Positions 16,997 through 64,000 are shown, counted from the first letter of the stretch. The stretch: 64,000 nt of DNA from Planctomycetota bacterium (GCA_013816485.1 JACDEI010000003.1:77988-141987), one strand, 5' to 3'. The notes: generated by a model from the sequence alone, not told the origin. Made by a program: numbers and translations.

Positions 16997-17014
16997 GAAA
17001 GATAACCGCGTTGC

Positions 17015-32987: not shown

Positions 32988-34094
32988 ATGGCGACCTCAA
33001 CCGTTCTGCGCTGTACTAGTTGCGATCTGGTGATCACTGGTGAGCCGCCTCCTGGAGGGAAATCTGCTCCCTGCCCCAGATGTGGGAAACCGCTGTCGGC
33101 CAAGCCGCCGGATCCCCTGGTTGGTCGCACCATCGGTGGTTGCCGCCTGATCAAACGCATCGGCATGGGCGCGATGGCAGTGGTCTACGAGGCGGAACAG
33201 CTCAGCAGCAAGCAACCGGTCGCGGTGAAGATGCTCACCGGCGAGGCCTCCAAAGACGAGGAGAACGGTCGCCGTTTCGCCCGTGAGGCCGAACTGTGCA
33301 TGGGTATCAACCATCCCAACGTGGTGGCGGTGCAGTCGCATGGCTGCGAGAACAAAATCTTCTTCATGATCATGGAACTGGTCGAAGGCTCGACCATGGA
33401 GGCGGTGATCGACCAGGATGGTGCGCGGCCCTGGCGTCAAGTCGCATCGTTCATCCTCCAGATCGCGCAGGCGCTCGACCACATCAGCAAGCTCGGGATC
33501 ATCCACCGCGATATCAAACCCGGCAACATCCTGCTAGCCCCGGGTGGCGTCGCGAAACTGCTCGACCTGGGTTTCGCCAAACGCGTCGGCGATGGCGACA
33601 GCGATCGCATGCGTGCACAACAGGGCGAACTGACCATGCAGGGCGTGTCGATGGGTTCACCCGCCTACATGCCACCGGAGCAGGTGCTCGACGCCAAGAA
33701 TGCCGACACCACCGCTGACATCTATTCGCTCGGCGCGACGTTCTTCCACGCGATCACCGGCCAGACGCCGTTCAACGGCAAAACCGCCTACGAGATCATG
33801 GAGAAAGTCCTGCGTCAGCCGCCACCACCGGCGAACAAACTGGTGCCGAACGTGCCCAAGGCCATCAGCCAGCTCATCGAGTGGACGATGCAAAAGGATC
33901 CCATTCTTCGCCCGGCCAGCGCCGGTGATTTCATCCGCGAGTTGGAAGTGGCGATGTTCGCACCCGACGACAGCAAACGGATCAAGAAGCTGCGCAGTTC
34001 GCAGAAGGGCACCATGGCCACCACGGTGATCATCGTGGGTGTGGCAGTGGTGGTGGTGGTGCTGGTCGCGGCGGTGTGGTTCTTCACCAAGTGA
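32988..34094 (+). CDS. Hanks-type Ser/Thr protein kinase with N-terminal zinc ribbon and C-terminal TM anchor (368 aa)
   Basis: The zinc ribbon is CTSC...CPRC. Kinase motifs are VAVKML, HRDIKPGNILL, DLGFAK and SPAYMPPEQ. The C-terminal TM is ATTVIIVGVAVVVVVLVAAVWFF. The track start at 32838 is a translation of the 10-mer repeat. Confidence 0.85.
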   Translation: MATSTVLRCTSCDLVITGEPPPGGKSAPCPRCGKPLSAKPPDPLVGRTIGGCRLIKRIGMGAMAVVYEAEQLSSKQPVAVKMLTGEASKDEENGRRFAREAELCMGINHPNVVAVQSHGCENKIFFMIMELVEGSTMEAVIDQDGARPWRQVASFILQIAQALDHISKLGIIHRDIKPGNILLAPGGVAKLLDLGFAKRVGDGDSDRMRAQQGELTMQGVSMGSPAYMPPEQVLDAKNADTTADIYSLGATFFHAITGQTPFNGKTAYEIMEKVLRQPPPPANKLVPNVPKAISQLIEWTMQKDPILRPASAGDFIRELEVAMFAPDDSKRIKKLRSSQKGTMATTVIIVGVAVVVVVLVAAVWFFTK

Positions 34095-43511: not shown

Positions 43512-43598
43512 TGGTGCCGGGACCGGGAATCGAACCCGGACGGCCTTGCGGCCGGGGGATTTTAAGTCCCCTGCGTCTGCCAATTCCGCCATCCCGGC
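43512..43598 (-). tRNA. tRNA-Leu (anticodon UAA), type II with long variable arm, CCA encoded
   Basis: The reverse complement reads GCCGGGA-UG-GCGGAAUUGGCAGACGC-A-GGGGA CUUAAAA UCCCC-CGGCCGCAAGGCCGU-CCGGG UUCGAUU CCCGG-UCCCGGC-A-CCA. All four stems pair. Length 87 nt. Confidence 0.9.
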
Positions 43599-45221: not shown

Positions 45222-45432
45222 CCGTGGACTCCAGAACGGGATGATCGCTGGCAAGATATAGCCGTGCCGACGCGGTGACACAAGCCAGGATCGACCGCAT
45301 GGTTGTGACGCATTGATGGGGGCCGTGACTTTGTCCTTGCCCCCCTGGGGGTGCTCCATACTTTCCCGCCCTCGCAACGCGGACCATGCTCGCGCGGCGA
45401 CCAACGGTCGCGATCTGACCGCTACCGATGCT

Positions 45433-45508
45433 GGGGGTATAGCTCAGTTGGTAGAGCGTCTGCATGGCATGCAGAAGGTCAGGAGTTCGAATCTCCTTAC
45501 CTCCACCA
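45433..45508 (+). tRNA. tRNA-Ala (anticodon GGC), CCA encoded
   Basis: GGGGGTA acceptor stem with a G3:U70 pair. The anticodon stem-loop is TCTGC ATGGCAT GCAGA and the T-loop is GGTTCGAATCC-like (AGGAGTTCGAATCTCCT). Length 76 nt. Confidence 0.92.
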
Positions 45509-46392: not shown

Positions 46393-47433
46393 TCAGCGTC
46401 GGCGTCGCCTGACGCGCGGGCGGCGCGCGCTCGCACGCGACGACTCGCCCTGCGGTTGCGCCGGCAGCTCGGTCGCGCTGATGTCGCCTTCGGTCTCGGC
46501 GTCCTCGAAATCCTCATCGCCGTCGCCGAGATCGGTGGTGCCGCCGTCGTTGAAACCGTCGGGATGCAGGGACGGCTGCCGCCCTTCGGCCAAGCCCTTG
46601 AGCGCCTCCACCACCGCATCGCCGTCGTACAGGCGATCGGCCGGACGTTTGGCCAGCATCAGGTCGAGCAGCTTCCGGCAATCTGACGGCACGCCGTTGG
46701 GATACGACAGTTGTTCGGTGGCGACGCGCACGATCAGGTCGATCACCGTGTCGCCGACGAAGGGCGGGCGGCCGGCGAAAAGGAAGAACAGCGTTGCGCC
46801 CAGGCTGTAGACGTCGCTTGCGGGCACCGCCTGCTTGGGATCGCGGTGTTGTTCCGGTGCCGAGTACTCCGGCGTGCCGACGATCGACAACACGCGTGAA
46901 CCGGTTTCCGCCGACTGCTCGAAACGATCGCGTACCAGTCCCAGGTCGAGCAGCTTGGCCGAGCCGTTCTGCGTCACCAGGATGTTGTCCGGTTTGATGT
47001 CGCGGTGGACCATGCCGTGACGGTGTGCATGCCCGAGCGCCTTGGCTACCTGATAGATCAGGTGCAAGGCCTGCGAACGCTTGAGCACGCCTTGGGTCTG
47101 CACCAGCCGGCTGGCGGTGATGCCCTGCACGTACTCCATCGAATAGCAGTAGAGTTTGCGCTCAGGGTCGGCCTGCACGTCGTGGACCGCGACGAGATTG
47201 GCGTGGCCGAGTTGCGCGGCGGCGCGGGCCTCGCGCAGGAAGCTGTCGACCGCGGCGGGATTGCGCAGGCGTTGTGGATGCAGGACCTTGAGCGCCACTT
47301 GGCGATCGAGCGACTTCTGCTTGGCGAGGTAGACATTACCCATGCCGCCGCGACCGAGCAGGCGTTCGATCTCGTAGCCGAAGATCTCGGTGCCCGGTGG
47401 TATTCCGTCCTTGCTGTGGATCTCAGTGCTCAT
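46393..47433 (-). CDS. Hanks-type Ser/Thr protein kinase (346 aa) with an acidic then poly-Arg tail
   Basis: Kinase motifs: GRGGMGNVYLA, VALKVL, HRDIKPDNILV, DLGLVR and GTPEYSAPEQ. The tail is DLGDGDEDFEDAETEGD...RRPRVRRRRR. Confidence 0.85.
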   Translation of the reverse strand: MSTEIHSKDGIPPGTEIFGYEIERLLGRGGMGNVYLAKQKSLDRQVALKVLHPQRLRNPAAVDSFLREARAAAQLGHANLVAVHDVQADPERKLYCYSMEYVQGITASRLVQTQGVLKRSQALHLIYQVAKALGHAHRHGMVHRDIKPDNILVTQNGSAKLLDLGLVRDRFEQSAETGSRVLSIVGTPEYSAPEQHRDPKQAVPASDVYSLGATLFFLFAGRPPFVGDTVIDLIVRVATEQLSYPNGVPSDCRKLLDLMLAKRPADRLYDGDAVVEALKGLAEGRQPSLHPDGFNDGGTTDLGDGDEDFEDAETEGDISATELPAQPQGESSRASARRPRVRRRRR

Positions 47434-49329: not shown

Positions 49330-51951
49330 CTATCCGCGTCCGCCCTTCGCCTTCGGCTCGGTCTCGACCGTACGTTCGACCTCTAGCTCCAGGCCGGCGT
49401 CGCTGTCCGGCTTGAGCACCACCGTGCTGCGATCCAGCAGTTCACCGGCGATCAGTTTGCGGCTAAGCGCGTTGGTGAGTTGCCGTTCGAGGTAACGCTT
49501 GAGCGGCCGCGCACCGTACTGCGGATCGTAAGATTCCTTGAGGATGCGGTCGAGCGCTTCATCGGTGAGCACGAGTTGGATCTTGCGATCCTTTAGACGT
49601 TCGGCGATGCGGCTGATCTGGAGCGTCACGATGCCCTTGAGCTGGGTCTTGGTCAGCGGCGTGAACACCACGATGTCGCTCAGGCGGTTGAGGAACTCTG
49701 GGCGGAAGTGCGCGCGCACCGCGGTCATCACCGCTTCCTTGGTGCCTTCCATGAACTCGCCGCCAGCGGTGACACCTTTGAGCAGGAACTCCGCACCGAG
49801 GTTGCTGGTCATGATCACCACGGTGTTCTTGAAGTTCACCGTGCGGCCTTGCCCGTCGGTCAGGTGGCCTTCGTCCAGCACCTGGAGCAAGGCGTTGAAC
49901 ACCTGCGGATGGGCTTTCTCGACCTCGTCGAACAACACCACGGTGTACGGGCGACGACGCACCGCCTCGGTGAGCTGACCACCTTCATCGTAGCCGACGT
50001 ATCCTGGGGGCGCGCCGATCAGGCGCGAGACGCTGTGGCTCTCCATGTATTCCGACATGTCGATGCGCACGATATGATGTTCATCGTCGAACAACTCAGA
50101 GGCGAGCGCCTTGGCCAGTTCGGTTTTTCCGACACCGGTCGGTCCCAGAAACAGGAACGAACCCAGCGGCTGGTTCTGATCGGCAAGGCCGGCGCGTGAA
50201 CGCAGTACCGCGTCGGCCACGGTATCGACCGCTTCCTCCTGACCGATGACACGATCATGCAGGCGATCGCCGAGTTTCAGCAGCCGTTCACGATCCCCTT
50301 CGGTGAGTTTGTTCGCCGGGATGCCGGTCCAACGGCTGACCACATCGGCGATGTCTTCCGGGCCGACCGATTCGCTGGTGAGGGTCTGGCCCTGATCGTT
50401 GGCCTGGGCGGCGATGCGCTTCTCCAGGTCGGGGATCACGCCGTAGCGCAGTTCGGCGACCTTGCCCAGGTTGTAGGCGCGTTCCGCCTGCTCGATGGCG
50501 GCCTTGGCTTCTTCGAGCTGCTGACGCAGCTTGCGGCCATCATCGACGCGGGATTTTTCCGCCTGATGGCGGGCGGTGAGGACCGACAGCTCCTCCTTGG
50601 CCTTGGCGAGGTCGGTGCGCACTTTCTCCAGGCGATCCCTGCTCGCTTGATCGGGTTCGCGTTTCAGTGCGGTGGCCTCCACTTCGAGCTGCAGCGTGCG
50701 GCGGTTGAGCTGATCGATCTCTGCGGGCGACGAATCAAGTTCGACGCGCGCGTTGGCGCACGCCTCGTCGACCAGATCAATGGCCTTGTCGGGCAGAAAG
50801 CGATCGGCGACGTAGCGGTCGCTGAGCATCGCGGCAGCCACCAGCGCAGCGTCGGCGATACGCACGCCGTGGTGCGTCTCGTAGCGTTCACGCAAGCCGC
50901 GCAGGATTGAGATGGTGTCCTCCACCGAAGGTTCACCGACCAGCACCGGCTGGAAACGCCGTTCGAAGGCGGCGTCCTTCTCGACGTGTTTGCGGTATTC
51001 ATCAAGGGTGGTCGCACCGATGCAGTGCAGTTCGCCGCGCGCGAGCAGCGGCTTCAGCAGATTCGCGGCATCCATCGCGCCATCGCTCTTGCCCGCACCC
51101 ATGAGCTGGTGCATCTCGTCGATGAAGAGGATGATCTTGCCGTCGGATGACTTCACCTCGTCGAGCACACCTTTGAGGCGCTCCTCGAACTCGCCGCGGA
51201 ACTTGGCGCCCGCGACCAAGGAACCCAGGTCGAGCGAGATCACCGTTTTGTCCTTGAGCCCTTCCGGCACGTCGCCTTTGACGATGCGATTGGCGAGCCC
51301 TTCGACGATGGCGGTTTTACCCACGCCCGGTTCACCGATCAGCACCGGGTTGTTCTTGGTGCGGCGCGACAACACCCGCACCACCCGACGGATTTCTTCA
51401 TCACGACCGATGACCGGATCGAGTTTGCCTTTGCGCGCATCAGCGACGAGGTCGCGACCGTACTTGGCCAGGGCGTCGTAGGTGTTCTCTGCTTGGTCGC
51501 TCTGCACCGTGCGGCCCTTGCGCACCTCATCGATGGCCTTGGCGAGGTTGCTGCGACCGAGGCCCTGTTCGTTGAGCACGCCACCGACCTTGCGGTCGCC
51601 GGTCAGCGCCAACAGCAGGTGTTCGATCGCCAGGTGCGAATCACCGCGGTTCTTCTGCTCCTTCTGGCCCGCCTGGATGATCTTCATCAGGTCGTTGCCG
51701 AAGCCGACCTGCGGCGGTGCCGGATGCTGCGTCGGCAGCTCGCCGAGCACCCGGCGCAGCGCAGTCTCGATGGTGTTGGTCTTGACCCCGACCTTGTCGG
51801 CGAGGCGGCGAGCGAGACCGCTGTCGTCAGCAAAGAGGGCGACCGCGAGGTGGATCGGTTCCACCTGCGCGTGGTCGTGACTGACCGCCTGTTCCTGCGC
51901 CCCGACCAGGGCAAGGCGGGATTTCTCAGTGAGCGTGTTGGGGTCGAGCAT
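49330..51951 (-). CDS. clpB: ATP-dependent chaperone ClpB (873 aa)
   Basis: Two AAA+ modules are present ([15 protein letters not shown] and [15 protein letters not shown]) with a coiled-coil middle domain between them. An N-terminal Clp repeat domain is present. Confidence 0.95.
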
Positions 51952-52271
51952 GGCGTCCTGTCCTTACGGCCGGCGAACCAGTGTCGGCCATGCGAAAGAA
52001 TACAGCAGTCATCATGCCAAGAAACCAAGGTGGGATTGGGTCAAATAGACCAGGAATCCCCGGCTCGGACTCATGATCTGCGGTCGAACCGACAGCCGCC
52101 CCGACCTGAACACCGGCCAGTGGCCCGCGGACGATCGATGATCGGGGGGAAGAACGATATCTGACGTGGTTCGACGCGTAGTCGGATAACGCCCTTGCAG
52201 AAGCGGATCGGACGGCAGCATGCCGACCCCGTCCTATGATATCGTGGCGGGGTCGCCCTCAGGAGTCCGTC

Positions 52272-55200
52272 ATGTCGCTTGTCCTCCGTCAGCTCCGCTC
52301 CGTCCTCCTCGTTCTCGCCGTGGGCGTGGGATTGTTTGCCGGTGAAGGCACCGGTACTGGGCTGTCCGCCCGGTACTATGCGAACGAGACGCTGAGCGGA
52401 TCACCAGCCGTGAGCCGGATCGATGCGCAGGTGAACTTCGCGTGGTCCGGTGGCGCACCTGCCTCGGCCCTGCCGGTGGATTCCTTCAGCGCTCGCTGGG
52501 ATGGCGAGGTCGAGGCGCGGTTTACCCAGAACCTGACGTTCATCGCGCGTACGGATGACGGTGTGCGGCTGTGGATCGACAACCAGTTGGTGATCGATGC
52601 CTGGTACTTGCGCGGAGCCGCTGATTCATCGTACACCTTCGCGGCGGAAGCCGGGCGCAAGTACCGCGTGCGGATGGAATATTATGAGCACTTCGGGTCG
52701 GCGGTGGCGCAGCTCCTGTGGCAGAGCACCAGTATTCCTCGCGCAGCCATCCCATCTGCCTACCTGTATCCAACTCCGGCGATCGAACTGCCATCAGGTT
52801 CCGGCACTGGTTTGCTCGCTCGCTACTATGCGAATGAAACCCTCTCGGGCATTCCAGTCCACGTCCGTACCGACGCCCGCGTCGACTTCGGGTGGGGCGG
52901 CGGCTCGCCTGATGGCAGCGTGCCAGTCGAGTCGTTCAGCGCCCGTTGGGACGGCGAGATCGAAGCCCGCGTCAGCGAACCGCTGACCCTCATCGCGCGC
53001 ACCGATGACGGCGTGCGCGTGTGGCTCAATGGCCAAGTGGTGATCGATTCCTGGATCCTGCGCAGTGCCGCCGATTCGACCTACACCTTCACTGCCGAAG
53101 CCGGGCGGAAGTACCGCATCCGCATGGAATACTACGAGCACACCGGTGCGGCGGTCGCACGGCTGTGGTGGCAGAGCGCCAACGAACCGAAGGGTCCGAT
53201 CCCCACCAGCCAGCTGTATCCGACGGATCCCAGCGATCCGCCGAACGGCACCGGTACCGGTCTGTTGGCGAGCTACTTCGCCAATGAGACGCTCTCCGGC
53301 ACTCCGGTGCTGAATCGCACGGAAGCGCGTGTCGATCACGCGTGGGGCAGCGGCTCCCCAGGGACTGGCGTCCCGGTCGATGTGTTCAGCGCGCGCTGGC
53401 TGGGTGAGATCGAACCGCGCACCAGCGAACCGCTGACCCTCATCGCTCGCACGGACGACGGTGTGCGCCTGTGGATCGACGGACAGTTGGTAATCGACCA
53501 GTGGATCCTGCGTGGTGCTGCCGACTCGACCTACACCTTCTCCGCCGAGGCCGGTCGCAAATACCGTATCCAATTGGAATACTTCGAGCACCTCGGCTCG
53601 GCCGTTGCCAAATTGTGGTGGCAGAGTGCCTCCGAACCCAGGGCGCCGATCCCGACTAGCCAGCTCTATCCCACGCCGCCGCCGTTCCCGCCGGCGGGCA
53701 CCGGCACCGGCTTGACCGGAACCTATTTCGCCAACGAGACGCTGACGGGCGAACCCGCGCTCACCCGCCTCGACCCGCGAGTTGATTTCTCGTGGGGCAG
53801 CGGCTCGCCGGGATCGCCGCTGCCGGTCGATGTTTTCAGCGTCCGTTGGCAAGGTGAGATCGAACCGCGCGTGAGCGAGCCGCTGACGCTGATCGCCCGC
53901 ACCGACGACGGTGTGCGGGTGTGGATCGACGATGTCCAGGTGATCAATGCGTGGATTCTGCGCGGTGCCGCCGACTCGACCCACACGTTCACGGCGCAAG
54001 CTGGCCACAAATATCGCATCCGCATGGAGTACTTCGAGCACCTCGGCTCGGCCGTGGCTAAGCTGTGGTGGCAGAGTGCCAACGAGCCGAAGGGCCCGAT
54101 TCCCACCAGCCAACTCTATCCGATCACCAGCACACCCACGACGCCGAGCATCGCCTTTGCCAACGCGGGAACGACCGTCGGCGAAACCGTCGGCAGCAGC
54201 ACCGTAACCGTGAACCTGTCCCAACCAGCCGCCATCGCGGTGACAGTTGCCATCCAGAGTACTGGCAGCGGTGCCACTGCTCCGGCCACCATCACCATTC
54301 CGGCAGGCGACACGACTGCGTCCGTTCCGGTGACCATCAGCGATGATCCGCGTTTCGGACCTGATCGTCAGGCCACGTTGTCGTTGGTAAGTCCGGTGGG
54401 TGCCGATCTGGGACCGATCACCAGCCACGTCCTGACGATCCAGAACACCGACCCGGCTCCGACCATCGCGTTCACCGCGCTCACGTCGTTCAACCTCGAA
54501 CAGAGCGGCACCGCTTCGGTGCCGGTGCGGCTCAGCGCGGTCTCGGCCCAGACGACCACCGTCACGGTGAGCCTGTCCGGATCAGCGAGCCCTGGCATCG
54601 ACTACCAGGCACCGTCGGCCACCCTCCAGATCCCGGCCGACACGTTCGAGGGCACCATCTTCATCCCGTTGTTCGCCGACAGCGTTCCGGAGCAGGATGA
54701 AACGATCATCCTGACCTTGTCCGCCCCCGTCGGTGCCACCCTTGGCAGCCCCAGCGTCCACACCATCACGCTGAGCGACGGCAACCAGTCGCCGGTGATC
54801 GCGAATGGCCCGACGCCAGCGGTCAACCCGGTGACCGGTACCGCCGTCAGCTTGTCCTTCTCGGCCACCGATGACGGGGGAGCCGACAACCTCACCTTCA
54901 CGTGGTCGACGGTCGGCACCGTGCCGGCCCCCGTTTCCTTCGCGCCAGCCACCGGCTCGGTGGGAACGTCGAGCACCACGACGGCGACGTTCACCGCCCC
55001 AGGCACCTATCCCATCCAGATCCAAGTGCGCGATGCCTATGAGGTGACGGCCATCGCCCAAGCCATCATCACTGTGCAATCGACGCCAGCGTTGATCACC
55101 GTTGTTCCGGCAATGGCGACTATCGCGCTCAACGGAACCCAGGCCTTCACCGCAGCCGGCACCAATCAGTTCGGCACCGCTCTTCCCCAGCCATTGTCAG

Positions 55201-58200
55201 TCACCTGGAGCGTCTCTGGTGGCGGAACCATCGCGGCGAACGGCGTGTTCACCTCCGGCACCACTGCCGGAGGTCCGTTCACCGTCCTGGCCTCGCTGCC
55301 GACTGCGCAGGGCAATGCGTCGATCACCGTGATCGATCAGGCTCCGATTCTGACCCAAGGCCCCACCGCCACGGTCGACGCCTCGGCCACTGGGTTGATC
55401 CTGTCGGCCGTGGCAGCCGATGACGGCGGCGAAGCCGCACTCACGTACCAGTGGTCGGTCGAAGGCACGGCCCCAGGCACGGTCCAGTTCGCCGCCAACG
55501 GCAGCAACGCCGCCAAGTCCACAACCGCCACGCTGAGCGCTGTCGGCACCTACGTCCTGCGCCTGACCGCCACCGATGCTGCCAACCAGGCCGTGAGTGC
55601 GACCACCAGCATCACCGTGGCGCAGCGGCTCACCACGTTGGCCATCGCTCCCGACACGGTGTCCCTGACGACCGGAGCCGAGTTCGACGTCACCCTGACC
55701 AGCAGGGATCAGTTCGGTGCGCTGATGACCGGCATTCCCAGCCCCATGTGGTCGATCATCGGTGGTGGCACCATCACCCCGACCGTGACCGGAGCGCATC
55801 TGGTGGCGGGCAGCGAGGTGGGCGGGCCGTTCACCCTCACGGCGGTGAGTGGAGCGATCCAGGCCACTGCCGCGGTGACCATCGTGCCGACGACGGGACA
55901 GGCGCAGACCATCACCTTTGCTCCGCTGCCGGCCAAGACCTATGGCGATGCAGCCTTCACGCTCACCGCATCCGCCACATCAGGACTCCTGGTGTCGTTC
56001 AGCAGCTCCGACACCTCAGTCGCCACGGTCAGCGGCACCACGGTGACCATCGTCGGCGCTGGCACGACCAACATCACTGCCGCACAGGATGGTAATGCGA
56101 CTTGGGAACCGGCCGCGCCGGTGGTTCAGCCCCTCGCCGTGGCCAAGGCACCGCAGATCATCACCTTCGCCGCGCTCACTGCGCGCACCATCGGGGATGC
56201 GCCATTTGCGTTGACCGCGACCGCGTCATCCGGCCTGCCGGTGTCGTACACCAGTTCCCATCCCGACGTGGCCACCGTCACGGGTGATCAGGTCACGATC
56301 GTCGCAGCAGGCACCACCACCATCACGGCGATCCAGACCGGTGGAGCGAATCACCTGCCGGCCGAGTCGGTGCCGCAGGTGCTGACGGTCTCCAAGGCAC
56401 CCCAGACCATCACCTTCGCTGCGTTGTCAGCGAAGACCTACGGCGACGCCCCGTTCCCAGTCACAGCAACCGCGTCATCGGGACTGCCAGTGGAGCTCGC
56501 CAGTTCGGATACTGCGGTGGCGACCATTCTTGACGGAACGGTCACCATCCATGCCGCCGGCACGACGATCATCACCGCGACCCAACCCGGCGATGCCACG
56601 TGGGATGCCGCCGCCTCAGTGCCGCAGACCCTGACCGTCAATAAAGCAGCGCAGACCATCACGTTCGCTGCGCTCTCTTCCCGCAACCTTGGTGATCTGC
56701 CCTTCACCATCACCGCCACGGCATCGTCCGGCTTGCCGGTGACGTTCACCAGCTCCGTCCCGTCGGTCGCTACCGTGAGCGGCGACATGGTGACCATCGT
56801 TGCTGCGGGCACGACCGCCATCACGGCGGAACAGGCCGGTAATGGAAACTATTTGGCGGCAGCGTCAGTGGCACAGCCGTTGATGATTGCTGCGCCGGCC
56901 AAGCAGACGCAAACCATCACCTTCGCTCCGCTGCCGGCCAAGACCTATGGCGATGCGCCGTTCGCGCTCACGGCCACGGCGTCGTCCAGTCTGCCGGTCA
57001 GCTACACCAGTTCAGATCCTGCGATCGCCTCCATCACCGGAGCGACCGTGACCATCTTGAAGGGTGGAACGGTGACCATCACGGCGGCCCAGGCAGGCGA
57101 TGCGCAGTGGGATCCGGCCGTGTCGGTCCCCCAGGAACTGACCATCAACAAGGCCGCGCAGACCATCACCTTTGCGGCCTTGTCCATGAAATCGGTCGGC
57201 GAGCAGGTCGCTTTGTCAGCCTCGACCACGTCTGGCCTGTCAGTGACGTATGCGAATTCCAACGCCGCGGTTGCCACGATCAGCAGCAGCGGCTCGACGC
57301 TGTATCTCATCGGCGTGGGCACCACTCTCGTCACCGCTAGCCAAGCAGGGGATGACAGGTACTTGCCGGCTCAGGCGGTCATCCGGGAGCAGGTGGTCGA
57401 ACCAGCCAAGCAGGAACAGTACATCTCGTTCTATTTGAATCCCTACAACCTGAAAGCCGGCGATCCGCCGTATGAGCTGAGTGCCTACGCCTACATCTAT
57501 GTCACCGTGTATGTCGATGACGCATATAACTCGTACTCATATCAGATTGAAGAACAGATCAACCTGCCGATCACCTTCACCAGTTCCGATCCGACGATCG
57601 CCAGCATCAGCGGGAATATGCTCACGCCCCACACGATGGGGATTGTCACCATCACGGCATCACAACCAGGCGATTCGACGTACAGGGCGGCCCAACCAGT
57701 TTCGCAGCAAATCAGGATCAAGAGCAAGGGAACGACCCCGCAGACCATCACCTTCCCGGCGTTCCCGCCAGTGATGTATGGCCAGGACGTGTTCCTTCCC
57801 TTGACCGCTACGGCGAGCTCGGGACTCCCCGTTACCTACATCAACAACTCGCCATGGGCGATGACGATCGAAGGCAATTCGCTCCGCATCTTGAATGCAG
57901 GGTACGTGTCCCTGAGAGCCATCCAGTTGGGTGATGACCAATACCAGGAGGCGAATGATGTGACTCAGTATTTCCAGATCGCCCAGGCACCGCAGGCCAT
58001 CACCTTCCCCACGCTGCCGAACAAGCCAGCGAACGCTCAACCATTCCCCTTGACGGCCACATCGTCCGCCGGGCTCGTCGTCAGCTATGTCAGCTCCGAC
58101 CCGACGGTTGCCAGTGTCAGTGGCAACATCGTCACTGTGCTGAAGAGCGGGACGACCACCATCACTGCACGGCAGTTCGGCAATGGGAACTACCTCGCTG

Positions 58201-61200
58201 CAACACCGGTCGCGCAGACTTTGACAGTCGAACGCCTGGAGCAGACCATCGATTTCACGACGGTCCCAGCGCTGACGCTCGGATCAGCCCCCGTTACGCT
58301 CCAGGCGACGACGGATTCCGGGCTGCCCATCACCATCACCTCCTCTGATCCATCGGTGGCGGTGGTGCGCGGCACGACACTGTACCTCATCCGTGCTGGG
58401 AGCGCAGTGCTCACCGCCGCGCAGGCAGGTGACGACATCCATGCACCGGCGCAGGCCACGCAATCGATCACCATCCAAGCGCCGACGGCGCCGGAACCGG
58501 GAACCCCGGTCGATTGGCAGGCAGACCTGGCGATCGATCTCGACTTCTCTCCCAGTCAAACCGGCTCAGATCCGGAGGTCCTGGAGGACGTCAAATACCA
58601 CTACAGCAAGGACGACACCATCCAGGTCTTCATCGCCGGACGTTCCGCTTCCGGAGCTTACATCGACCGGATTGTCGTCACCCTCGGCGATCAGCAGGAC
58701 GAGATCACCGGTCCGTCGGGAATGGCGGAGTTCCCCGGCCTCGCCGAAGGCGAACACGACCTGAGCGTGCACATCAGCGCCCATCATGGTGAGGATGCTG
58801 GGTCGAAATCCTTCGAGCGCTTTGGTCAGGCGGACGAGCCGAACCGGATGTCGGTCGATCGGACGAAACCCGTATTGACCCTGTTGCTGCCCAAGCGTTT
58901 CTGGCTCGATGCCGGGGATCGTGAACCCGGGGTCAGCGAATTCCCGTTGGTGCGCAACGATCCACCGCGTTTCTGGGTGAACAAAGAAGTGGAAAGCTGG
59001 AACAAATCGCTGCGTACCAAATACAGCCGTGAGACCTTTGGTCAGACCGATCTCGGGAATGGTGTGATCGCTGCAGTCGCTGATGTCACCGGCGTTGACA
59101 AACGCATCGCCGCCCAGGTCGCCACGGGCCGGACCATCGCGGGGAATGGAACCTCCCGCCCATTGACGCTGAGTGTCCTCGACAAGGACAGCACCGATGC
59201 GGATCGACCGGATCCCGAAGAAGCATCCACCGAGCAACGTCTGCTCATCAAAGGCATGGCCGTGCTTCCAGATAACAACTACCGCATGCGTCTGTCGGTG
59301 AAGGACAAGGCCGGTAATGAAGTCGATGATGTCGAGTTCATCATGATCACCGTCGACACGAGATCACCCGGCCTGCATGATGTGACGTCATTTACGTCGC
59401 CATTCCGGATTTTCGACGGAGCTGACGAGGATTGCCAACTGGCGTGGCAGGGAACGGAGGCAACAGACCAGACGTTGATGCGTTCTCGGTGGTCGCAACC
59501 AATCGGGACGGGCAGGTCACTGGGAGGCTGGCGTCTGAATCAGCCCATCCCCACGGCTGCCCCATCACTCTTCAAAGTGGGGTATCCGTATGCATGGGCC
59601 TCGGCGACTGGCAACTTCATTATCGCTGATGTCGCGGGAAACCGCACCTCAGGTCAGGTGACTTTTAATGCAATGACTTCGGGAGCGAATTTTGCCAGTT
59701 ATGTTACTCCTATGCCCTCGGGCTCCTTTGATCGCGCTCGCGCCCAGGGGGACACGTTCGTCGATTACCGTCCCGAACAAGAAGACCCGATCGATCAGCA
59801 AGCATTTCCATGGTCGGACGACGACGACGATGGGCCTCGCGCTTATACCTTTCCGACGCAATCCGGTATCTGGGCTTTGCTCGGCCGTATAGAAGACACG
59901 GGCCCAATAGAAGAGGGAGAAGAACGGACCTACTCTTGGGATTGGAGTTTCCGGCGATTTGCCAGCGCCAAGGCTTTCCGGGAGGAGATTCTGGAAGTGA
60001 CAGATCCTGATAGCGATGACTATCCAAATCCCCTCGATCGTCTGGGCGCCACCAGCGTCACGCCCTTGGATCCGCAAGTCAGTCCAGGCAATGCCGACGA
60101 CTTGTACATGCGCCCGGCAATCATCACCATTGCTCCGTCCTGGAAGCCCAAGGCCAGTCTCGGGGACAGTGATCGCGTGCGTATCGCGGTGACCGAAAAG
60201 CCGGATGGCTACCCATTCAGCACGGGTCTGATCACGGTCGGTGCGACCAATGATCCCGCTGATGCGCCGGCGGCGGAGTCCTACTCCAACGGTTTATCCC
60301 GCATGTTCCTGCCGGCGCGAGAAAACGTGACGTCAGGCTTCTCCAATGTCGGGTATGCCTATCTCGCGAGTGGTGAGGGATCGGGTTCGTCCGGTGGTGC
60401 GGCACCTGCCCCGTTGTTTTATGATCAGGAGCCGGTGACTATCAGTCCGTATTCACTCTTGGGGGGAGCGCTCCATGGTGATGTGGATTATGGCAATCTC
60501 ACCGCCTATTGGCTCAACGCTATCCGCCTGTCACCCGACGTGGTGGCGACTGGCGGCGTACGCACCATTCGTATCTCGGCGGGATTCTTCACCGATCAGT
60601 TGCGCGCGGATCTGTTCTCGAAGACCGGCGACTACGTGCACTTCCGTACGCAGGATGACCAGGATCTGACGATCCCGGTGTCGGAGTACGCGGGCAAGAC
60701 TGCGGACGAACTCAAGGACAAGATCGCCATCGTATCGCAGCGAATGGTTTATCCGGATGGGAATGTGTGGCAGCGGCAGCAGTTGGAGTTGCAGGTGGCG
60801 CTCGGCCCCGAGGTGCCGGCGGCGCTCTACCATGTCGACGTCAAACTGGGTGCGGTGAAGGCTTACTCGGACACGTTGAGCCAGACGCACGCTGGGGCCA
60901 ATGGATCACATCGTATGAAGGAGGCGTTGGCGGTGGTTGGGCTCGACCTCATGTACGGCAAGGTCGACGCGGAGACTGGTCGCGGCATGGTTGGCGGGGC
61001 GGATGATGTGCTGATCAATAGCCGGGAGGACGAGCAGCCTTTGCCGAAGAGTAATCCGCGACCGATGGTGAAAATCACTTCTGTTGCGGTATCTGGTATC
61101 ACTGCCACGACCGCTAGCGCGATATCTGGCGACGTCAGGATCGAGGGTGAAGTTTCGTTCGCACTGGCTGATATCATTGCCGATGGATCTGCGGATCCGA

Positions 61201-64000
61201 CGAGCGTGGTTATCGAAATACCAGGATGCGACCCACGAAGCATCAGCCTGCAAAAACACGTGGAGACCGCGAGTCTCCTGCGGCCCTACGCCAAGACCTT
61301 CAGCTTCTCTACGGACATTCCTTACGTGGGACTCATGCCGTTCGGATTCAATGGAATACGCGTTTCCTGCAAGGATCCAGTCCTTGGGAATCGCACCTAT
61401 GCGACGGCCAACATCCAGATCACATCCTCGCATGGTGAGACCTCACTGTCGGGCCAGGGCGCTATCTTGAGCATGCCCATGCTGGTCCTGGCGACGTTCC
61501 CACCAGGAAAAGACATCGACCAGATCATTGTCGGCGGCGAACACATCACCGTCATGATCAAGGATCCCTTCGCCACCTCCGAAACGCCCCGATCTTACAT
61601 GTGCCGAGTCGACCGGTTGACGGATGGTCGAATTGCGATCTACGACCCCCTTTACGAGTGCAATCTGTTCGCCCCGGTGGAGTTCAATCCCACACAGCAG
61701 GGCAGCGCTGTGATGCAGGGTTTCTTCCCGAAGAGCCGGCCCTATTCCATTCCACTGACGGTGGCGAGAGATGGAGGGACATCCTCCTGGATGAATGAGC
61801 TGATTTGGAGCGACATCGCCCTCGCTGAAGGTTACCAGCACGGACAGGCGTCTGGTCTACAAGCGAAGATCTCCAGGGAGACCATGGCAGGAATCACGGT
61901 CATCTGTCAAGGCGATGTAACGAGCGCAGCAAGCGATCCAGATCGTTTCGCCTATCCTGGCATTGGCGCGATTCTGATTGAGAGCATCAGGCCGCCTACC
62001 GCATCGGTGCGTGGTTCGATGACCGTTAAATTGGAGTTGAGCTCCGTCCTTGAGGGCGATCGAACCCAGGGATTGGTTTTGGTTAGTGCATCGCGCTTCT
62101 CGAATCAGCTGTCCGACATGGCCGCTAGTACGGTCAAGGTGCCGCTGGGTTCGGTATCAGGCCCGTGGAACGCCTCGGTTATAATTCACCCCGTCGGAGA
62201 TCCGGGACCATACACGCCCATTATGATGAGGGTCAGACCTCCATCTCCGGAATTTATGCACGAATGGATCTCCACCCAAGGTCTCCGGTGCGAAATCATG
62301 GGATACGAGCATGACATCATTGAGCGCGATGGGGTCTTTTGGTGTGCAGGTAGCCCGGATCCAGGCGTCTATACTTTTGCCGTTCCGGAAGACGGGGATG
62401 AATTTGGTGCCGGTCATGTGACCAATGGGAAATTCGTGTTTGGTCGACTCAAAAGCACCAATGGAAATGACCACGCCTTGGCTGACTTGAAGACGAATCG
62501 GAAGGACACGGTGGAGACATCCGAGAAGCTCAGGGATCTGTTGATAAAATTGGGCCGGAAGTTGCGGGATAAACGCCTCTCGGCGGGCGATCCGTCAGGG
62601 ACATACTTCGCTGCTGACTTCGGAAATTCGATGTACGCCACCCGATACCAGAACGACGCACTATTCACCGCAGGACGGCCAGCGGATCCGGCCCTGCGTA
62701 TGGCAAATTTGATCTCCATGTTCAATCAATTTGTCATGAGGCAGGAGGTGGCGCAGCGTGGCCCTGGATTCGTAAGCAACGACAATGACGTACGTGAGCT
62801 GGCCAAGAGGATCCGCAGCTGGATGAATCTCGCGACCGACGCGAACCCGATCGCCAACGGCCCGGACCTGCTTTACCGGGCGGCGGTACAGGGCCGCGTT
62901 GTCAAGTCTCGCGATGCCACGGGAAAGGTGACGTACGGACCGACTGGATCCGGAGAGGTGCTCTTCCATCCGACATCACCTGAGACGGTTCCCATCTTTT
63001 CAACCGGATCAAAATTCCTTCTAGGGGCATGGAGACCTGCCGAGGTTGGAAACTCCGAAACCGATTTCATTTCGAACAGTCAGAACGAGACGCAGATCCT
63101 TCATTTCAATACCGGGCTAGGTTGGTCGATGATCCAGGAAAAAGCAATCGCGGCCATCATTGCCCTCGACAAATACAACAAGGGGGAGGTGGGGGCAGAC
63201 GAGGCGGTGGAGACGATCATCGATGCGTATGGGGAAAACATGGACGCGGACACCCTTGCTAGACTCAGGTCATACCCTGCTTCCCTTGCGATCTCGGCCA
63301 TCACCTCGGGACTGGCCGGCGAGGTGGTTCGGCATCGCTTCGAGGAAATGCTGATGATCGGTAAGCTGGCGATGTCTTATAAGCAGAATGCGGCGGCGAC
63401 TCCAAGCCTGATGGACCTGTTTATCGCCTACGACATCGCCAGTGGCGAAGGCTTCCATCTCTTCGGCATTGATGCGTTCAATGATATCATCGCAACCCAT
63501 GCGGGCGCGCTTTTTGGGGCGGATGCCAATTTCCTCTCCCCGAACTTCATCTTCGCAGGCGATCAGAAGCTCAAGCAGAACATTGAAGGGCACTTCAAGG
63601 CGGCGAGGTCGGAGTACCTCGCACACCAGGTTATGCAGAACCGCGCTTCAATTATGAACGCGTTCTTTTCCTTGATGATGTCAACGGAGACAACCTTGTC
63701 CGGACTGCCAAAGTCCCGGAAGCGGAATTGGGAATTCGTTCCAGTCAAGATCGAGCTCGACGTGCAAAAGAGGGACGCGAACGGCCAACGCATGTTCGAA
63801 ATGAACTCGGATGGTACTCCAAAAAAGAACGACAGCGGACATCTGATTCCCGTTATTGAGAAAAAGGCTTTCAAGCTCTGGGGAGAAACCATCGGAACCA
63901 TCGTGCAGAGGCAGATCGATGGTCAGATCATCACCAAATCCTCGAACTCCCGGGAGATAGATCCTGGTAAAGAGAGGGAATTCCTGGCGAAGGTGGAAGC
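52272..64000 (+). CDS. Giant secreted repeat protein, 3' end beyond the window (at least 3,909 aa): signal peptide, 4x PA14, 2x Calx-beta, PKD/Ig-like modules, about 10 tandem Ig-like modules, large unassigned C-terminal region
   Basis: The frame with codon starts divisible by 3 is open from ATG 52272 (AGGAG at 52261-52265) to nt 64000. It is absent from the ORF track because it has no stop. The frame was hand-checked at several points, including the low-GC parts. The PA14 pattern GTGL.ARYYANETLSG...FSARWDGEIEAR...ARTDDGVR.W....VID.W...AGRKYRIRMEY.EH.G.AVA.LWWQS occurs 4 times. Confidence 0.85.
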   Translation, partial: MSLVLRQLRSVLLVLAVGVGLFAGEGTGTGLSARYYANETLSGSPAVSRIDAQVNFAWSGGAPASALPVDSFSARWDGEVEARFTQNLTFIARTDDGVRLWIDNQLVIDAWYLRGAADSSYTFAAEAGRKYRVRMEYYEHFGSAVAQLLWQSTSIPRAAIPSAYLYPTPAIELPSGSGTGLLARYYANETLSGIPVHVRTDARVDFGWGGGSPDGSVPVESFSARWDGEIEARVSEPLTLIARTDDGVRVWLNGQVVIDSWILRSAADSTYTFTAEAGRKYRIRMEYYEHTGAAVARLWWQSANEPKGPIPTSQLYPTDPSDPPNGTGTGLLASYFANETLSGTPVLNRTEARVDHAWGSGSPGTGVPVDVFSARWLGEIEPRTSEPLTLIARTDDGVRLWIDGQLVIDQWILRGAADSTYTFSAEAGRKYRIQLEYFEHLGSAVAKLWWQSASEPRAPIPTSQLYPTPPPFPPAGTGTGLTGTYFANETLTGEPALTRLDPRVDFSWGSGSPGSPLPVDVFSVRWQGEIEPRVSEPLTLIARTDDGVRVWIDDVQVINAWILRGAADSTHTFTAQAGHKYRIRMEYFEHLGSAVAKLWWQSANEPKGPIPTSQLYPITSTPTTPSIAFANAGTTVGETVGSSTVTVNLSQPAAIAVTVAIQSTGSGATAPATITIPAGDTTASVPVTISDDPRFGPDRQATLSLVSPVGADLGPITSHVLTIQNTDPAPTIAFTALTSFNLEQSGTASVPVRLSAVSAQTTTVTVSLSGSASPGIDYQAPSATLQIPADTFEGTIFIPLFADSVPEQDETIILTLSAPVGATLGSPSVHTITLSDGNQSPVIANGPTPAVNPVTGTAVSLSFSATDDGGADNLTFTWSTVGTVPAPVSFAPATGSVGTSSTTTATFTAPGTYPIQIQVRDAYEVTAIAQAIITVQSTPALITVVPAMATIALNGTQAFTAAGTNQFGTALPQPLSVTWSVSGGGTIAANGVFTSGTTAGGPFTVLASLPTAQGNASITVIDQAPILTQGPTATVDASATGLILSAVAADDGGEAALTYQWSVEGTAPGTVQFAANGSNAAKSTTATLSAVGTYVLRLTATDAANQAVSATTSITVAQRLTTLAIAPDTVSLTTGAEFDVTLTSRDQFGALMTGIPSPMWSIIGGGTITPTVTGAHLVAGSEVGGPFTLTAVSGAIQATAAVTIVPTTGQAQTITFAPLPAKTYGDAAFTLTASATSGLLVSFSSSDTSVATVSGTTVTIVGAGTTNITAAQDGNATWEPAAPVVQPLAVAKAPQIITFAALTARTIGDAPFALTATASSGLPVSYTSSHPDVATVTGDQVTIVAAGTTTITAIQTGGANHLPAESVPQVLTVSKAPQTITFAALSAKTYGDAPFPVTATASSGLPVELASSDTAVATILDGTVTIHAAGTTIITATQPGDATWDAAASVPQTLTVNKAAQTITFAALSSRNLGDLPFTITATASSGLPVTFTSSVPSVATVSGDMVTIVAAGTTAITAEQAGNGNYLAAASVAQPLMIAAPAKQTQTITFAPLPAKTYGDAPFALTATASSSLPVSYTSSDPAIASITGATVTILKGGTVTITAAQAGDAQWDPAVSVPQELTINKAAQTITFAALSMKSVGEQVALSASTTSGLSVTYANSNAAVATISSSGSTLYLIGVGTTLVTASQAGDDRYLPAQAVIREQVVEPAKQEQYISFYLNPYNLKAGDPPYELSAYAYIYVTVYVDDAYNSYSYQIEEQINLPITFTSSDPTIASISGNMLTPHTMGIVTITASQPGDSTYRAAQPVSQQIRIKSKGTTPQTITFPAFPPVMYGQDVFLPLTATASSGLPVTYINNSPWAMTIEGNSLRILNAGYVSLRAIQLGDDQYQEANDVTQYFQIAQAPQAITFPTLPNKPANAQPFPLTATSSAGLVVSYVSSDPTVASVSGNIVTVLKSGTTTITARQFGNGNYLAATPVAQTLTVERLEQTIDFTTVPALTLGSAPVTLQATTDSGLPITITSSDPSVAVVRGTTLYLIRAGSAVLTAAQAGDDIHAPAQATQSITIQAPTAPEPGTPVDWQADLAIDLDFSPSQTGSDPEVLEDVKYHYSKDDTIQVFIAGRSASGAYIDRIVVTLGDQQDEITGPSGMAEFPGLAEGEHDLSVHISAHHGEDAGSKSFERFGQADEPNRMSVDRTKPVLTLLLPKRFWLDAGDREPGVSEFPLVRNDPPRFWVNKEVESWNKSLRTKYSRETFGQTDLGNGVIAAVADVTGVDKRIAAQVATGRTIAGNGTSRPLTLSVLDKDSTDADRPDPEEASTEQRLLIKGMAVLPDNNYRMRLSVKDKAGNEVDDVEFIMITVDTRSPGLHDVTSFTSPFRIFDGADEDCQLAWQGTEATDQTLMRSRWSQPIGTGRSLGGWRLNQPIPTAAPSLFKVGYPYAWASATGNFIIADVAGNRTSGQVTFNAMTSGANFASYVTPMPSGSFDRARAQGDTFVDYRPEQEDPIDQQAFPWSDDDDDGPRAYTFPTQSGIWALLGRIEDTGPIEEGEERTYSWDWSFRRFASAKAFREEILEVTDPDSDDYPNPLDRLGATSVTPLDPQVSPGNADDLYMRPAIITIAPSWKPKASLGDSDRVRIAVTEKPDGYPFSTGLITVGATNDPADAPAAESYSNGLSRMFLPARENVTSGFSNVGYAYLASGEGSGSSGGAAPAPLFYDQEPVTISPYSLLGGALHGDVDYGNLTAYWLNAIRLSPDVVATGGVRTIRISAGFFTDQLRADLFSKTGDYVHFRTQDDQDLTIPVSEYAGKTADELKDKIAIVSQRMVYPDGNVWQRQQLELQVALGPEVPAALYHVDVKLGAVKAYSDTLSQTHAGANGSHRMKEALAVVGLDLMYGKVDAETGRGMVGGADDVLINSREDEQPLPKSNPRPMVKITSVAVSGITATTASAISGDVRIEGEVSFALADIIADGSADPTSVVIEIPGCDPRSISLQKHVETASLLRPYAKTFSFSTDIPYVGLMPFGFNGIRVSCKDPVLGNRTYATANIQITSSHGETSLSGQGAILSMPMLVLATFPPGKDIDQIIVGGEHITVMIKDPFATSETPRSYMCRVDRLTDGRIAIYDPLYECNLFAPVEFNPTQQGSAVMQGFFPKSRPYSIPLTVARDGGTSSWMNELIWSDIALAEGYQHGQASGLQAKISRETMAGITVICQGDVTSAASDPDRFAYPGIGAILIESIRPPTASVRGSMTVKLELSSVLEGDRTQGLVLVSASRFSNQLSDMAASTVKVPLGSVSGPWNASVIIHPVGDPGPYTPIMMRVRPPSPEFMHEWISTQGLRCEIMGYEHDIIERDGVFWCAGSPDPGVYTFAVPEDGDEFGAGHVTNGKFVFGRLKSTNGNDHALADLKTNRKDTVETSEKLRDLLIKLGRKLRDKRLSAGDPSGTYFAADFGNSMYATRYQNDALFTAGRPADPALRMANLISMFNQFVMRQEVAQRGPGFVSNDNDVRELAKRIRSWMNLATDANPIANGPDLLYRAAVQGRVVKSRDATGKVTYGPTGSGEVLFHPTSPETVPIFSTGSKFLLGAWRPAEVGNSETDFISNSQNETQILHFNTGLGWSMIQEKAIAAIIALDKYNKGEVGADEAVETIIDAYGENMDADTLARLRSYPASLAISAITSGLAGEVVRHRFEEMLMIGKLAMSYKQNAAATPSLMDLFIAYDIASGEGFHLFGIDAFNDIIATHAGALFGADANFLSPNFIFAGDQKLKQNIEGHFKAARSEYLAHQVMQNRASIMNAFFSLMMSTETTLSGLPKSRKRNWEFVPVKIELDVQKRDANGQRMFEMNSDGTPKKNDSGHLIPVIEKKAFKLWGETIGTIVQRQIDGQIITKSSNSREIDPGKEREFLAKVE
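52346..54120 (+). repeat. Four tandem PA14-domain coding repeats (about 450-nt period)
   Basis: Units start near 52346, 52803, 53248 and 53698. Some stretches are nearly identical, for example tacttcgagcacctcggctcggccgt.gc.aa..tgtggtggcagagtgcc in units 3 and 4. Confidence 0.85.
55897..58480 (+). repeat. About 10 tandem Ig-like coding repeats (about 250-nt period)
   Basis: The marker cagaccatcacctt(c/t)gc (QTITFA) recurs near 55909, 56155, 56403, 56652, 56905, 57160, 57738, 57993 and 58245. The unit consensus is QTITFA.L..KTYGDAPF.LTATASSGLPV.Y.SS...VATVSG..VTI..AGT..ITA.Q.G. The unit near 57410-57600 is degenerate and Tyr-rich. Confidence 0.8.

Follow-up and report, generated by a model that had tools for sequence, protein, structure and literature searches.

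What kind of protein is encoded by a giant open reading frame (ORF) that begins at position 52272 of a 64,000-nucleotide (nt) stretch of Planctomycetota bacterium DNA and runs off its end? We analyzed the whole of this stretch (GCA_013816485.1, JACDEI010000003.1:77988-141987), which we refer to as the window, and we propose, tentatively and with slightly less than even confidence, that the ORF encodes a Sec-exported fibrillar protein that carries a polymorphic, toxin-like effector cassette and has a lipoprotein immunity partner. A junction motif, cassettes that are strain-specific or orphaned, delivery parts that are unrelated to one another, and an exported partner protein that co-varies with the cassette lead us to favor this polymorphic-toxin organization.

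The ORF is almost certainly a real gene for a giant secreted modular protein, and 99% of it lies in the window. It is open on the plus strand from the ATG at 52272 to base 63998, giving 3,909 stop-free codons in the 11,729 nt to the end of the window, and the nearest in-frame stop upstream of the ATG is at 52179. An earlier note made from the sequence alone (the original prediction) had reported this open frame and an AGGAG sequence 6 nt upstream of the ATG, and we confirmed both. It had also presumed that the ORF is missing from the accompanying ORF track because it runs off the window, and had placed every ORF listed between 52.3 and 64 kb in another frame or antisense. Both statements hold, as the listing skips ORFs that run off the source and those listed over this interval are all antisense or in other frames. 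A search of positions 51900-52400 for a sigma-70-like promoter found none, which says little for such an organism.

The end of the gene, which the original prediction left undefined, could be placed with the help of a contig from another assembly. Contig L004 (JAITZM010000161.1, GCA_020064105.1) is 100% identical to window positions 39330-61951, a span of 22,622 bases, and the gene called on it has the same start as the window gene and a length of 3,947 amino acids (aa). Therefore, the window is short of the final 115 bases of the gene, comprising 38 codons and the stop, which falls at window-equivalent 64113-64115. By arithmetic, the end of the gene lies inside L004, ~1.6 kb from the end of that contig, and 41-45 residues remain in family members that align up to the last residue of the window, in agreement with the missing 38. 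Thus, the contig extension that had been suggested as a check yields the position of the stop by way of the identical contig. The exact protein sequence of the divergent neighbor ClpB (49330-51951, minus strand) was found on two public contigs, one of them L004.

A non-functional ORF, whether open by chance, decaying as a pseudogene or created by chimeric assembly of repeats, would be compatible with a premature stop at codon 76 of a sister-strain allele in two assemblies, with the contigs of three assemblies that break inside or just after the gene, and with a GC content that is ~0.66 over the 5' half but only 0.55-0.58 over the 3' third (window 57200-64000). GC content at third codon positions (GC3) likewise drops from ~0.8 to 0.61-0.73 toward the 3' part of the gene, and the drop in both measures fits a foreign origin of the distal part. 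However, the probability of 3,909 stop-free codons by chance is ~1e-52 from the regional base composition, and in-frame GC3 is high throughout (0.61-0.83 over the whole ORF, as in neighboring genes). The ratio of nonsynonymous to synonymous substitution rates (dN/dS) is 0.09-0.38 in each segment that can be aligned between the window gene and the allele of the sister strain (L001, GCA_020063985.1). Each segment has Pfam domains or conserved homologs, and the independent assembly described above is identical over 22.6 kb and has the gene called with a stop. We consider this explanation to be close to refuted.

The features of the gene are as follows, with positions counted from the first base of the window; Ig denotes immunoglobulin and HMM denotes hidden Markov model.

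52261-52265, plus strand: Shine-Dalgarno-like AGGAG, spaced 6 nt from the ATG (direct sequence reading)
52272-52349, plus strand: start codon and N-terminal signal peptide, aa 1-26, MSLVLRQLRSVLLVLAVGVGLFAGEG (hydropathy; same start on L004)
52350-54122, plus strand: four PA14 domains, aa ~27-167, 176-317, 326-467 and 485-617 (Pfam PF07691, E=4.1e-89, four stretches)
54144-54782, plus strand: two Calx-beta modules, aa ~625-725 (weak) and 729-837 (strong) (Pfam PF03160, E=3.5e-13)
54783-55904, plus strand: duplicated PKD plus Ig-like pair, aa 838-1021 and 1022-1211 (Pfam, chunked BLAST)
55905-58487, plus strand: ten tandem 83-aa Ig-like (Big_2-like) repeats, aa 1212-2072 (HMM, Pfam)
58488-60857, plus strand: pre-junction region, aa 2073-2862; contains two degenerate Ig-like motifs of the form D(K/V)AGN (faint Big_13 and Big_3_2 matches)
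60858-60932, plus strand: junction motif, aa 2863-2887, VKAYSDTLSQTHAGANGSHRMKEAL (breakpoint, and start of homology to orphan cassettes)
60933-62606, plus strand: beta-rich part of the cassette, M1, M2 and M3 (HMMER relatives, AlphaFold2)
62607-64000, plus strand: helical domain and tail of the cassette, aa 3446-3909, with 38 further codons past the window (HMMER relatives, AlphaFold2)

The order of domains given in the original prediction proved right in every item when examined by Pfam, chunked BLAST and a repeat HMM, and the expected Pfam matches to four PA14 domains and to Big and PKD families were recovered. The PA14 copies are 63-81% identical to one another, and a 450-nt tandem period at 52918-54121 detected by Tandem Repeats Finder corresponds to their array. 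The sole NCBIfam match is to the PA14 insert of a xylosidase model, far under the cut-off of that model. Of the two Calx-beta modules that had been anticipated, one is above threshold in the whole-protein scan, and two stretches are obtained when the segment is scanned alone; the copies are 32-34% identical to each other. The PKD_4, K319L-like_PKD and PKD models match two stretches each, and the PKD plus Ig-like pairs share 39-46% identity. For the Ig-like array, which had been put at about ten modules of ~85 aa, an HMM built from copies 1-5 recovers exactly ten copies of 83 aa, and Pfam Big_2 matches in five partial stretches (E=3.9e-14). Copy 7 is split by a Tyr-rich insertion, YAYIYVTVYVDDAYNSYSYQIEEQ (window 57400-57560, aa ~1714-1765), and at this site the insertion in the sister allele is a different, Tyr/Trp-rich one.

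Of the 3,909 residues, only the signal peptide, which is presumably cleaved, forms a hydrophobic segment (above 1.6 on the Kyte-Doolittle scale, averaged over 19 aa), and no other candidate for a transmembrane-helix anchor is present. No Pfam match to an anchor of the LPxTG, SLH, autotransporter/YadA barrel, Por_Secre_tail or LapG plus RTX (repeats-in-toxin) type was obtained at E<=0.01 with the whole protein or at E<=1 with its segments, and the missing 38 aa are an amphipathic tail helix as judged by the family alignment. On the anchoring, which the original prediction left undefined, the answer is thus that the protein has no known anchor. Residues 1-2072 can fairly be described as a lectin/Ig stalk like that of fibrillar adhesins. 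The original reading of a glycan-binding surface adhesin does not extend to the whole protein, given the lack of an anchor and the variable C-terminal cassette. The stalk itself is ordinary; the novelty sits in the cassette family, the junction motif and the partner-gene pattern.

We compared the window with the sister strain at both the nucleotide and the codon level. Over the 10 kb upstream of the gene and over its first ~4 kb, the two strains have virtually the same sequence. Identity is 67-88% at ~56.5-60 kb, with strong divergence past aa ~1460, then 97-100% at 60585-60764 and 90% to 60884, and it is random from 60885. The rates of synonymous substitution (dS) and the dN/dS ratios by segment are as follows.

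aa 98-1211 versus sister allele: dS 0.002-0.06, dN/dS 0.09-0.38
aa 1461-2770 versus sister allele: dS 0.4-1.27, dN/dS 0.15-0.29
aa 2771-2872 versus sister allele: dS 0.08, dN/dS 0.12

Within these segments, the pre-junction region has a dN/dS of 0.15-0.17. The pattern of dS and dN/dS therefore indicates that the distal stalk and the pre-junction region are an old functional allele imported by recombination. The final breakpoint lies inside the junction motif, at nt 60885, and no alignment is possible beyond it: past the junction, the window protein has ~1,060 residues and the sister allele has ~230 unrelated residues. It is very probable that the C-terminal cassette was exchanged by recombination, and the C-terminus was replaced independently of the exchange of the distal stalk and pre-junction region. 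The sister ortholog also has a TGG to TAG change that creates a stop in the first PA14 domain (W76*; L001 9935-9937, also in L002, window-equivalent 52497-52499). This change is present in both the NCBI and the Logan assemblies of the sister strain, and because of it the sister gene is split by gene callers into ORFs of 75 aa and 3,115 aa. It is possible that the population of the sister strain has this gene inactivated or switched off.

The original prediction left more than 1,800 aa of the protein undefined. This part resolves into the pre-junction region, the junction motif and a four-domain cassette. No internal repeats were detected in aa 2073-3909 by chunked self-BLAST. The ~1,870-aa C-terminal part gave no match in NCBIfam, PHROGs, PADLOC or PDB sequences, either as a single sequence or as a profile, and only faint Ig-like traces against Pfam. 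A word-indexed search of 5.8 billion protein clusters with this part returned just two relatives, P0001 and P0002. P0001 is the syntenic ortholog in the sister strain, located behind the same ClpB, methyltransferase and kinase genes. P0002 is a 1,262-aa protein from an unrelated sample; apart from a signal peptide and a single PKD-Ig pair, it consists of a copy of aa 2056-2899 at 41% identity. The pre-junction region is common only to P0001, P0002 and, in part, P0005, and alignment of this region to 185,579 reference genomes gave no relative. Protein patterns from aa 3001-3909 likewise gave no match in genome and metagenome contig collections.

The junction is a 25-residue motif with the consensus KAYSDxLSQxxAGANGSHRM, and it was also found in P0003, P0005, P0006, P0039 and a second cassette at the P0003 locus. 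The cassette that follows it (aa 2888-3947, ~1,060 residues) is divided as follows.

aa 2888-3060: M1, with GRGxxG, ADIxxDxxADPT and LLRPYAxxFxF
aa 3061-3290: M2, variable
aa 3291-3445: M3, with GPW..PGPYxPxxxR and FGAGHxxK
aa ~3446-3810: helical domain, with DFxSQxQNxTQILHFNTGLGW, LDxFxAYDIASGEGFHxFGIDxFNDIIATEAG and ARxxFLxH
aa 3811 to end: tail, with IWxxTxGT and a terminal helix

An AlphaFold2 model of aa 2880-3909 from a 24-sequence alignment has a mean predicted local distance difference test score (pLDDT) of 71 and a predicted template modeling score (pTM) of 0.60. The predicted layout consists of three beta-sandwich domains (pLDDT blocks of 80-95), the helical domain and a small beta/alpha tail. 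When the helical domain was modeled alone from 30 sequences, it was predicted to be a nine-helix bundle with a small sheet (pLDDT 78.8, pTM 0.76). Foldseek comparison of the 1,030-aa cassette model with the PDB returned generic Ig-like sandwiches only (E>=0.03), and the 370-aa helical-domain model gave a best E of 0.59 with a TM score below 0.2. The best match of the whole cassette model among the viral models of BFVD had E=0.012, and a scan of IMG/VR for the cassette was negative. By these comparisons, the helical domain is without a detectable counterpart among solved structures. Eleven residues are invariant in 24 family sequences (D3598, Q3604, H3611, Y3720, S3724, E3726, F3731, D3734, D3738, G3745 and T3873), and the invariant polar residues of the helical domain would seem to resemble an active site more than a binding surface. 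A colicin-type pore former was rejected, as the cassette has no hydrophobic helical hairpin. A GxSxG lipase, an HD phosphohydrolase and a zinc-dependent phospholipase C were each unsupported by motif spacing, judged by eye, or by Foldseek.

When aa 2880-3909 served as the query of an exhaustive HMMER search, 38 of 1.84 billion representatives matched at E<=1e-3, including 15 at E<=1e-30, and a metagenome scan added 16 further loci of the cassette family. This was far richer than a word-indexed search with the helical-domain profile, which found three proteins only. No Pfam family touches the cassette module in the 24 family members scanned. In their N-terminal parts, the relatives bear no relation to the stalk of the window protein; they have acidic DxDxDN repeats, PKD domains or ASH/HYDIN-type Ig domains there, and one relative of at least 3,000 aa has a right-handed beta-helix (NosD-like) together with Big_13 and Big_7 in this part. 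The cassette family is rare. Like the junction motif and the partner pattern, it is undescribed in the libraries and literature that we searched, and that literature yielded no mention of the accession numbers of the related assemblies, which are metagenome-derived. At one related locus (L006), a 952-aa paralog at 15891-18749 has a first ~190 residues that are almost exactly those of P0004, 3 kb upstream, followed by a different C-terminal domain with a weak palmitoyl-thioesterase-like match. Its sequence suggests a second effector on the same delivery head.

Could the protein be a tethered extracellular enzyme instead? Here PA14 and Calx-beta would bind carbohydrate, and the helical domain would be a hydrolase or lyase that degrades a polysaccharide, cell-wall or lipid polymer to feed the cell and not to kill others. 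PA14 is commonly an insert in glycosidases, and the sole NCBIfam match is to the PA14 part of a xylosidase model; acidic, His and Ser residues are among those invariant in the helical domain; and beta-helix domains, such as those in the one relative, are typical of polysaccharide-active proteins. However, a nutritional enzyme has no obvious need for cassette swapping, orphan copies or co-varying exported partners. Moreover, no glycoside hydrolase, lyase or esterase family was detected by Pfam in the window protein or 24 relatives, and no polysaccharide-utilization genes are nearby. We consider a nutritional enzyme unlikely.

Detached cassettes that have the junction motif at their start and lack both signal peptide and stalk occur in sibling assemblies of the same project rather than in the window itself. 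One contig, L013 (JAITZQ012311773.1, GCA_020064125.1), has two cassettes that face each other, and its assembly also contains a contig, L005, that is 99.96% identical to the window. One of these cassettes, P0003, is the closest relative of the window helical domain (52-53% identity), and L013 4342-4416 is 76% identical to window 60932-60858. The leader-plus-junction segments of L013, at 281-441 and 4339-4499, form a 161-nt inverted repeat of 88% identity with its arms 3.9 kb apart, and the second arm reaches the end of the contig. A second contig, L014 (JAITZE010001638.1, GCA_020063865.1), has one orphan cassette, P0006. Directly upstream of it, L014 carries a 988-aa gene without a Pfam match and two tyrosine recombinase genes, along with a PIN_3 toxin gene with a 91-aa partner, and downstream of P0006 is an IS200-like Y1 transposase gene. 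This gene set (L014 319-6041) has the look of a mobile element that inserted next to the locus or within it.

The geometry of the L013 inverted repeat would allow switching by inversion, and the tyrosine recombinase genes lie directly upstream of the L014 cassette. Both observations would be expected if a site-specific recombinase switched the cassette on the stalk within a clone by programmed, shufflon-like inversion. However, there is no recombinase gene within 26 kb upstream of the window gene, where the neighbors are housekeeping genes, and the recombinases of L014 sit among the mobile-element-like genes listed above. Both L013 cassettes are detached from any stalk on that contig, and a dS of ~1 over the exchanged tract is indicative of alleles replaced between lineages. 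Programmed inversion thus appears very improbable as the means by which the cassette varies.

We read the DNA 3' of the module gene in 18 related loci. In most of these loci, the next ORF overlaps the stop codon of the module gene or begins within a few nt of it (range -23 to +143) and starts with a signal peptide or lipobox. The encoded partners are of several kinds, and some occur as tandem copies.

Family A: MORN_2-repeat lipoproteins, at or near the Pfam threshold, in L008 (two copies), L011, L015, L017, L021 and L024
Family B: unnamed, in L014, L018 and L023
Family E/F: a beta domain plus helical repeats, in L006 (two copies), L013 and L026 (two copies)
Singletons: unrelated to A, B and E/F, in several loci

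Partner families go with particular subclades of the helical domain, as the loci with family B are mutual nearest neighbors at 50-53% identity and those with family A share 43-50% identity. Such co-variation is as would be expected of cognate pairs. Since the nearest relative of the window cassette is at L013 (52% identity), an E/F-type lipoprotein gene, related to those at L013 1788-2963 and L006 12533-13924, is predicted to follow the stop of the window gene, an expectation drawn from these relatives. In the 18 loci, the module protein ends 0-10 aa past a conserved tail motif, LxQMVEVLxLI. More generally, the terminal motif of the module proteins at L006-L032 reads LxQ(M/I/V)(V/I)E(V/M/I)L(S/M)L(I/L); it is amphipathic, is usually followed by acidic residues, and packs onto the helical domain in the model. 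From its strictly terminal position, this motif could be a sorting signal.

As the main alternative, it is quite possible, although we would not presume it, that the protein is a plain fibrillar adhesin, the distal tip and stalk of which are swapped for ligand specificity or for escape from phages or grazers. The downstream lipoproteins would then be anchoring or assembly partners and not immunity proteins. The combination of an adhesive domain and stalk repeats matches the definition of fibrillar adhesin-like proteins (PMC8286594), the cassette contains three Ig-like sandwiches, and a toxin signature was not found. The variation also reaches far upstream of the junction and involves old alleles under purifying selection, as an adhesin would predict. 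However, the most conserved part of the cassette is the helical domain, which with its invariant D/Q/H/Y/S/E/D/D residues is more active-site-like than a variable tip. Several unrelated partner families that co-vary with the tail subtype ill suit a conserved anchoring machine, and the silent cassettes bring their own partner gene.

In the effector mechanism that we favor, the stalk, composed of four PA14 domains, two Calx-beta modules, two PKD-Ig pairs and ten Big_2-like repeats, would bind carbohydrate and hold the remainder of the protein at a distance from the cell. Homologous recombination very probably swaps the distal part between strains, and the cassette would be presented or released as a toxin-like effector that acts on neighboring cells. 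The exported lipoprotein encoded directly downstream would serve as the cognate immunity partner in the periplasm. The window encodes a TonB-dependent receptor (30059-32164), and the organism is therefore diderm; the protein would presumably pass across the outer membrane. Exported partners would suggest that the target is in the envelope. Whether the protein is the first example of an additional class of giant polymorphic effectors that depend on Sec, in which the fold and the junction motif are new, diverse periplasmic lipoproteins (MORN_2 proteins among them) confer immunity and the invariant D/Q/H/Y/S/E/D/D residues mark a new envelope-targeting toxin activity, is more doubtful, and we put it forward as a possibility rather than as a probability.

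Several observations weigh against the polymorphic effector proposal. The W76* stop in the sister allele means that the gene is dispensable there. No known toxin, processing-protease or pre-toxin domain was found by Pfam, PDB profile or Foldseek searches, and at ~1,060 aa the cassette is several times the typical length of a polymorphic toxin tip. The strains start to diverge as far as ~4 kb upstream of the junction, as could also be expected of a surface antigen subject to diversifying exchange. A single helical-domain family is paired with several unrelated partner families, and a homology search with d391, the partner from L013 and thus from the closest relative, found no homolog beyond d391 itself. 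NCBIfam searches with the MORN_2 partners gave only sub-threshold matches to Leptospira 'adhesin' models. MORN-variant repeats, which we take to be a building block of the YwqK-family antitoxins of LXG toxins, are a lead only. No genes of type V, VI or VII secretion systems (T5SS, T6SS, T7SS) lie near the giant gene, the neighbors of which are housekeeping genes for ClpB, a methyltransferase, inositol monophosphatase, a Ser/Thr kinase, D-Tyr-tRNA deacylase, an aldo-keto reductase and CstA. Finally, the window ends before the stop of the gene, such that its own downstream gene falls outside the window.

If the polymorphic effector proposal is true, a sizeable family with a confidently predicted, unmatched fold and no counterpart in Pfam, NCBIfam or the PDB gets a testable function, and a set of exported lipoprotein families gains a working hypothesis as immunity proteins. 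The logic of polymorphic toxins would also extend to Sec-exported, adhesin-type stalks in uncultured, high-GC diderm bacteria. Even if the protein is an adhesin, the locus offers a clean natural example of a giant surface protein in which segments of the allele have been replaced between genomes that otherwise do not differ, and dS is ~0 in the flanks versus ~1 in the exchanged tract.

Elsewhere in the window, a heavy-metal P-type ATPase gene at 8596-10800 looks broken. Its ORF at 8596-10173 stops past the start of the hydrolase domain, and the C-terminal part with GDGINDAP is in another frame from ~10150, so that the gene is either a frameshifted pseudogene or an assembly error. A 440-aa protein encoded at 2016-3338 (plus strand) has a baeRF family 3 domain, which is archaeo-eukaryotic release-factor-like (E=4e-50); domains of the baeRF type are often tied to conflict or ribosome-rescue systems. 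At 12246-16763 (plus strand) is the gene for a 1,505-aa protein with a GDSL lipase-like domain, DUF7133 and HEAT repeats. The window has three Ser/Thr kinase genes, at 32838-34094 (plus strand), 35402-38269 (minus strand) and 46393-47433 (minus strand), and two tRNA genes, at 43515-43598 (minus strand) and 45433-45505 (plus strand), which flank a 586-aa ORF at 43644-45404 (minus strand) with no Pfam match. DUF7133, the abundance of Ser/Thr kinases and a GC content of 63% would allow a guess, but no more, at a PVC-type bacterium.

Among known systems, the giant RTX adhesins (LapA, MpIBP and the Aeromonas RTX adhesin), our account of which draws in part on PMC12077191, resemble the window protein in size, in their long arrays of Ig-like extenders and in a sugar-binding module of the PA14 type. 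In contrast to the window protein, these adhesins have no Sec signal, and they carry C-terminal RTX nonapeptides with a type I secretion signal and an N-terminal retention module that is cleaved by LapG. We found no Pfam match to RTX (HemolysinCabind) repeats in the window protein, which likewise lacks the type I signal and the retention module and has a Sec-type signal peptide instead.

A second comparison is with the LXG toxin YwqJ and its antitoxin YwqK from Bacillus subtilis (PMC8321402). In contrast to this pair, our partner proteins are lipoproteins from diderms, an LXG or deaminase domain is missing from the upstream protein, and the closest relative of the window pairs with the E/F lipoprotein family. 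The likeness, which presumably lies in the repeats, is that a MORN_2-repeat protein is encoded directly after the cassette in six related loci.

Fibrillar adhesin-like proteins, as surveyed by Monzon et al. 2021 (PMC8286594), include PA14 as an adhesive domain that occurs in tandem and Big_2 as a stalk domain, and nearly half of them are without a known anchor. The window protein is similarly a long single polypeptide with a signal peptide, tandem PA14 domains, a stalk of Big_2-like, PKD and Calx-beta domains, and no recognized anchor. Thus, it has the adhesive domain and the tandem stalk domains of this group and lacks a recognizable cell-surface anchor. It differs in that aa 2073-3947, almost half of the protein, are neither stalk repeat nor known adhesive domain, and in that its distal part is a module exchanged by recombination, with an enzyme-like helical domain and a partner gene that is linked to it in relatives.

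The closest comparison for this distal part is with the polymorphic toxin systems (CdiA-CT, Rhs-CT and MafB) reviewed by Zhang et al. 2012 (PMC3482391), in which export by a plain signal peptide is accepted as a delivery route. Unlike these toxins, the window protein has no two-partner secretion (TPS), filamentous hemagglutinin (FHA), RHS, PAAR, LXG or MafB-N domain, and in their place it has a Sec signal and an adhesin-type stalk only. The CdiA and Rhs hallmarks (Haemagg_act, FHA repeats and RHS/YD repeats) were absent from Pfam scans of the window protein and 24 family members, and no T5SS, T6SS or T7SS domains were found in the window protein. Its junction motif is new, and its four-domain cassette of ~1,060 aa matches no known toxin family or fold, as Foldseek gave nothing at E<0.001 in either the PDB or BFVD. 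Junction motifs of comparable role are VENN in CdiA and PxxxxDPxGL in Rhs. As in the polymorphic toxins, a large exported protein has a conserved front followed by a C-terminal cassette that differs between close strains, and a short conserved junction motif is retained by orphan cassettes, which stand alone in sibling assemblies (P0003 and the second L013 cassette, and P0006). Likewise, the cassette family is found on unrelated delivery parts, and in most of the related loci a small gene lies directly downstream, the family of which co-varies with the cassette.

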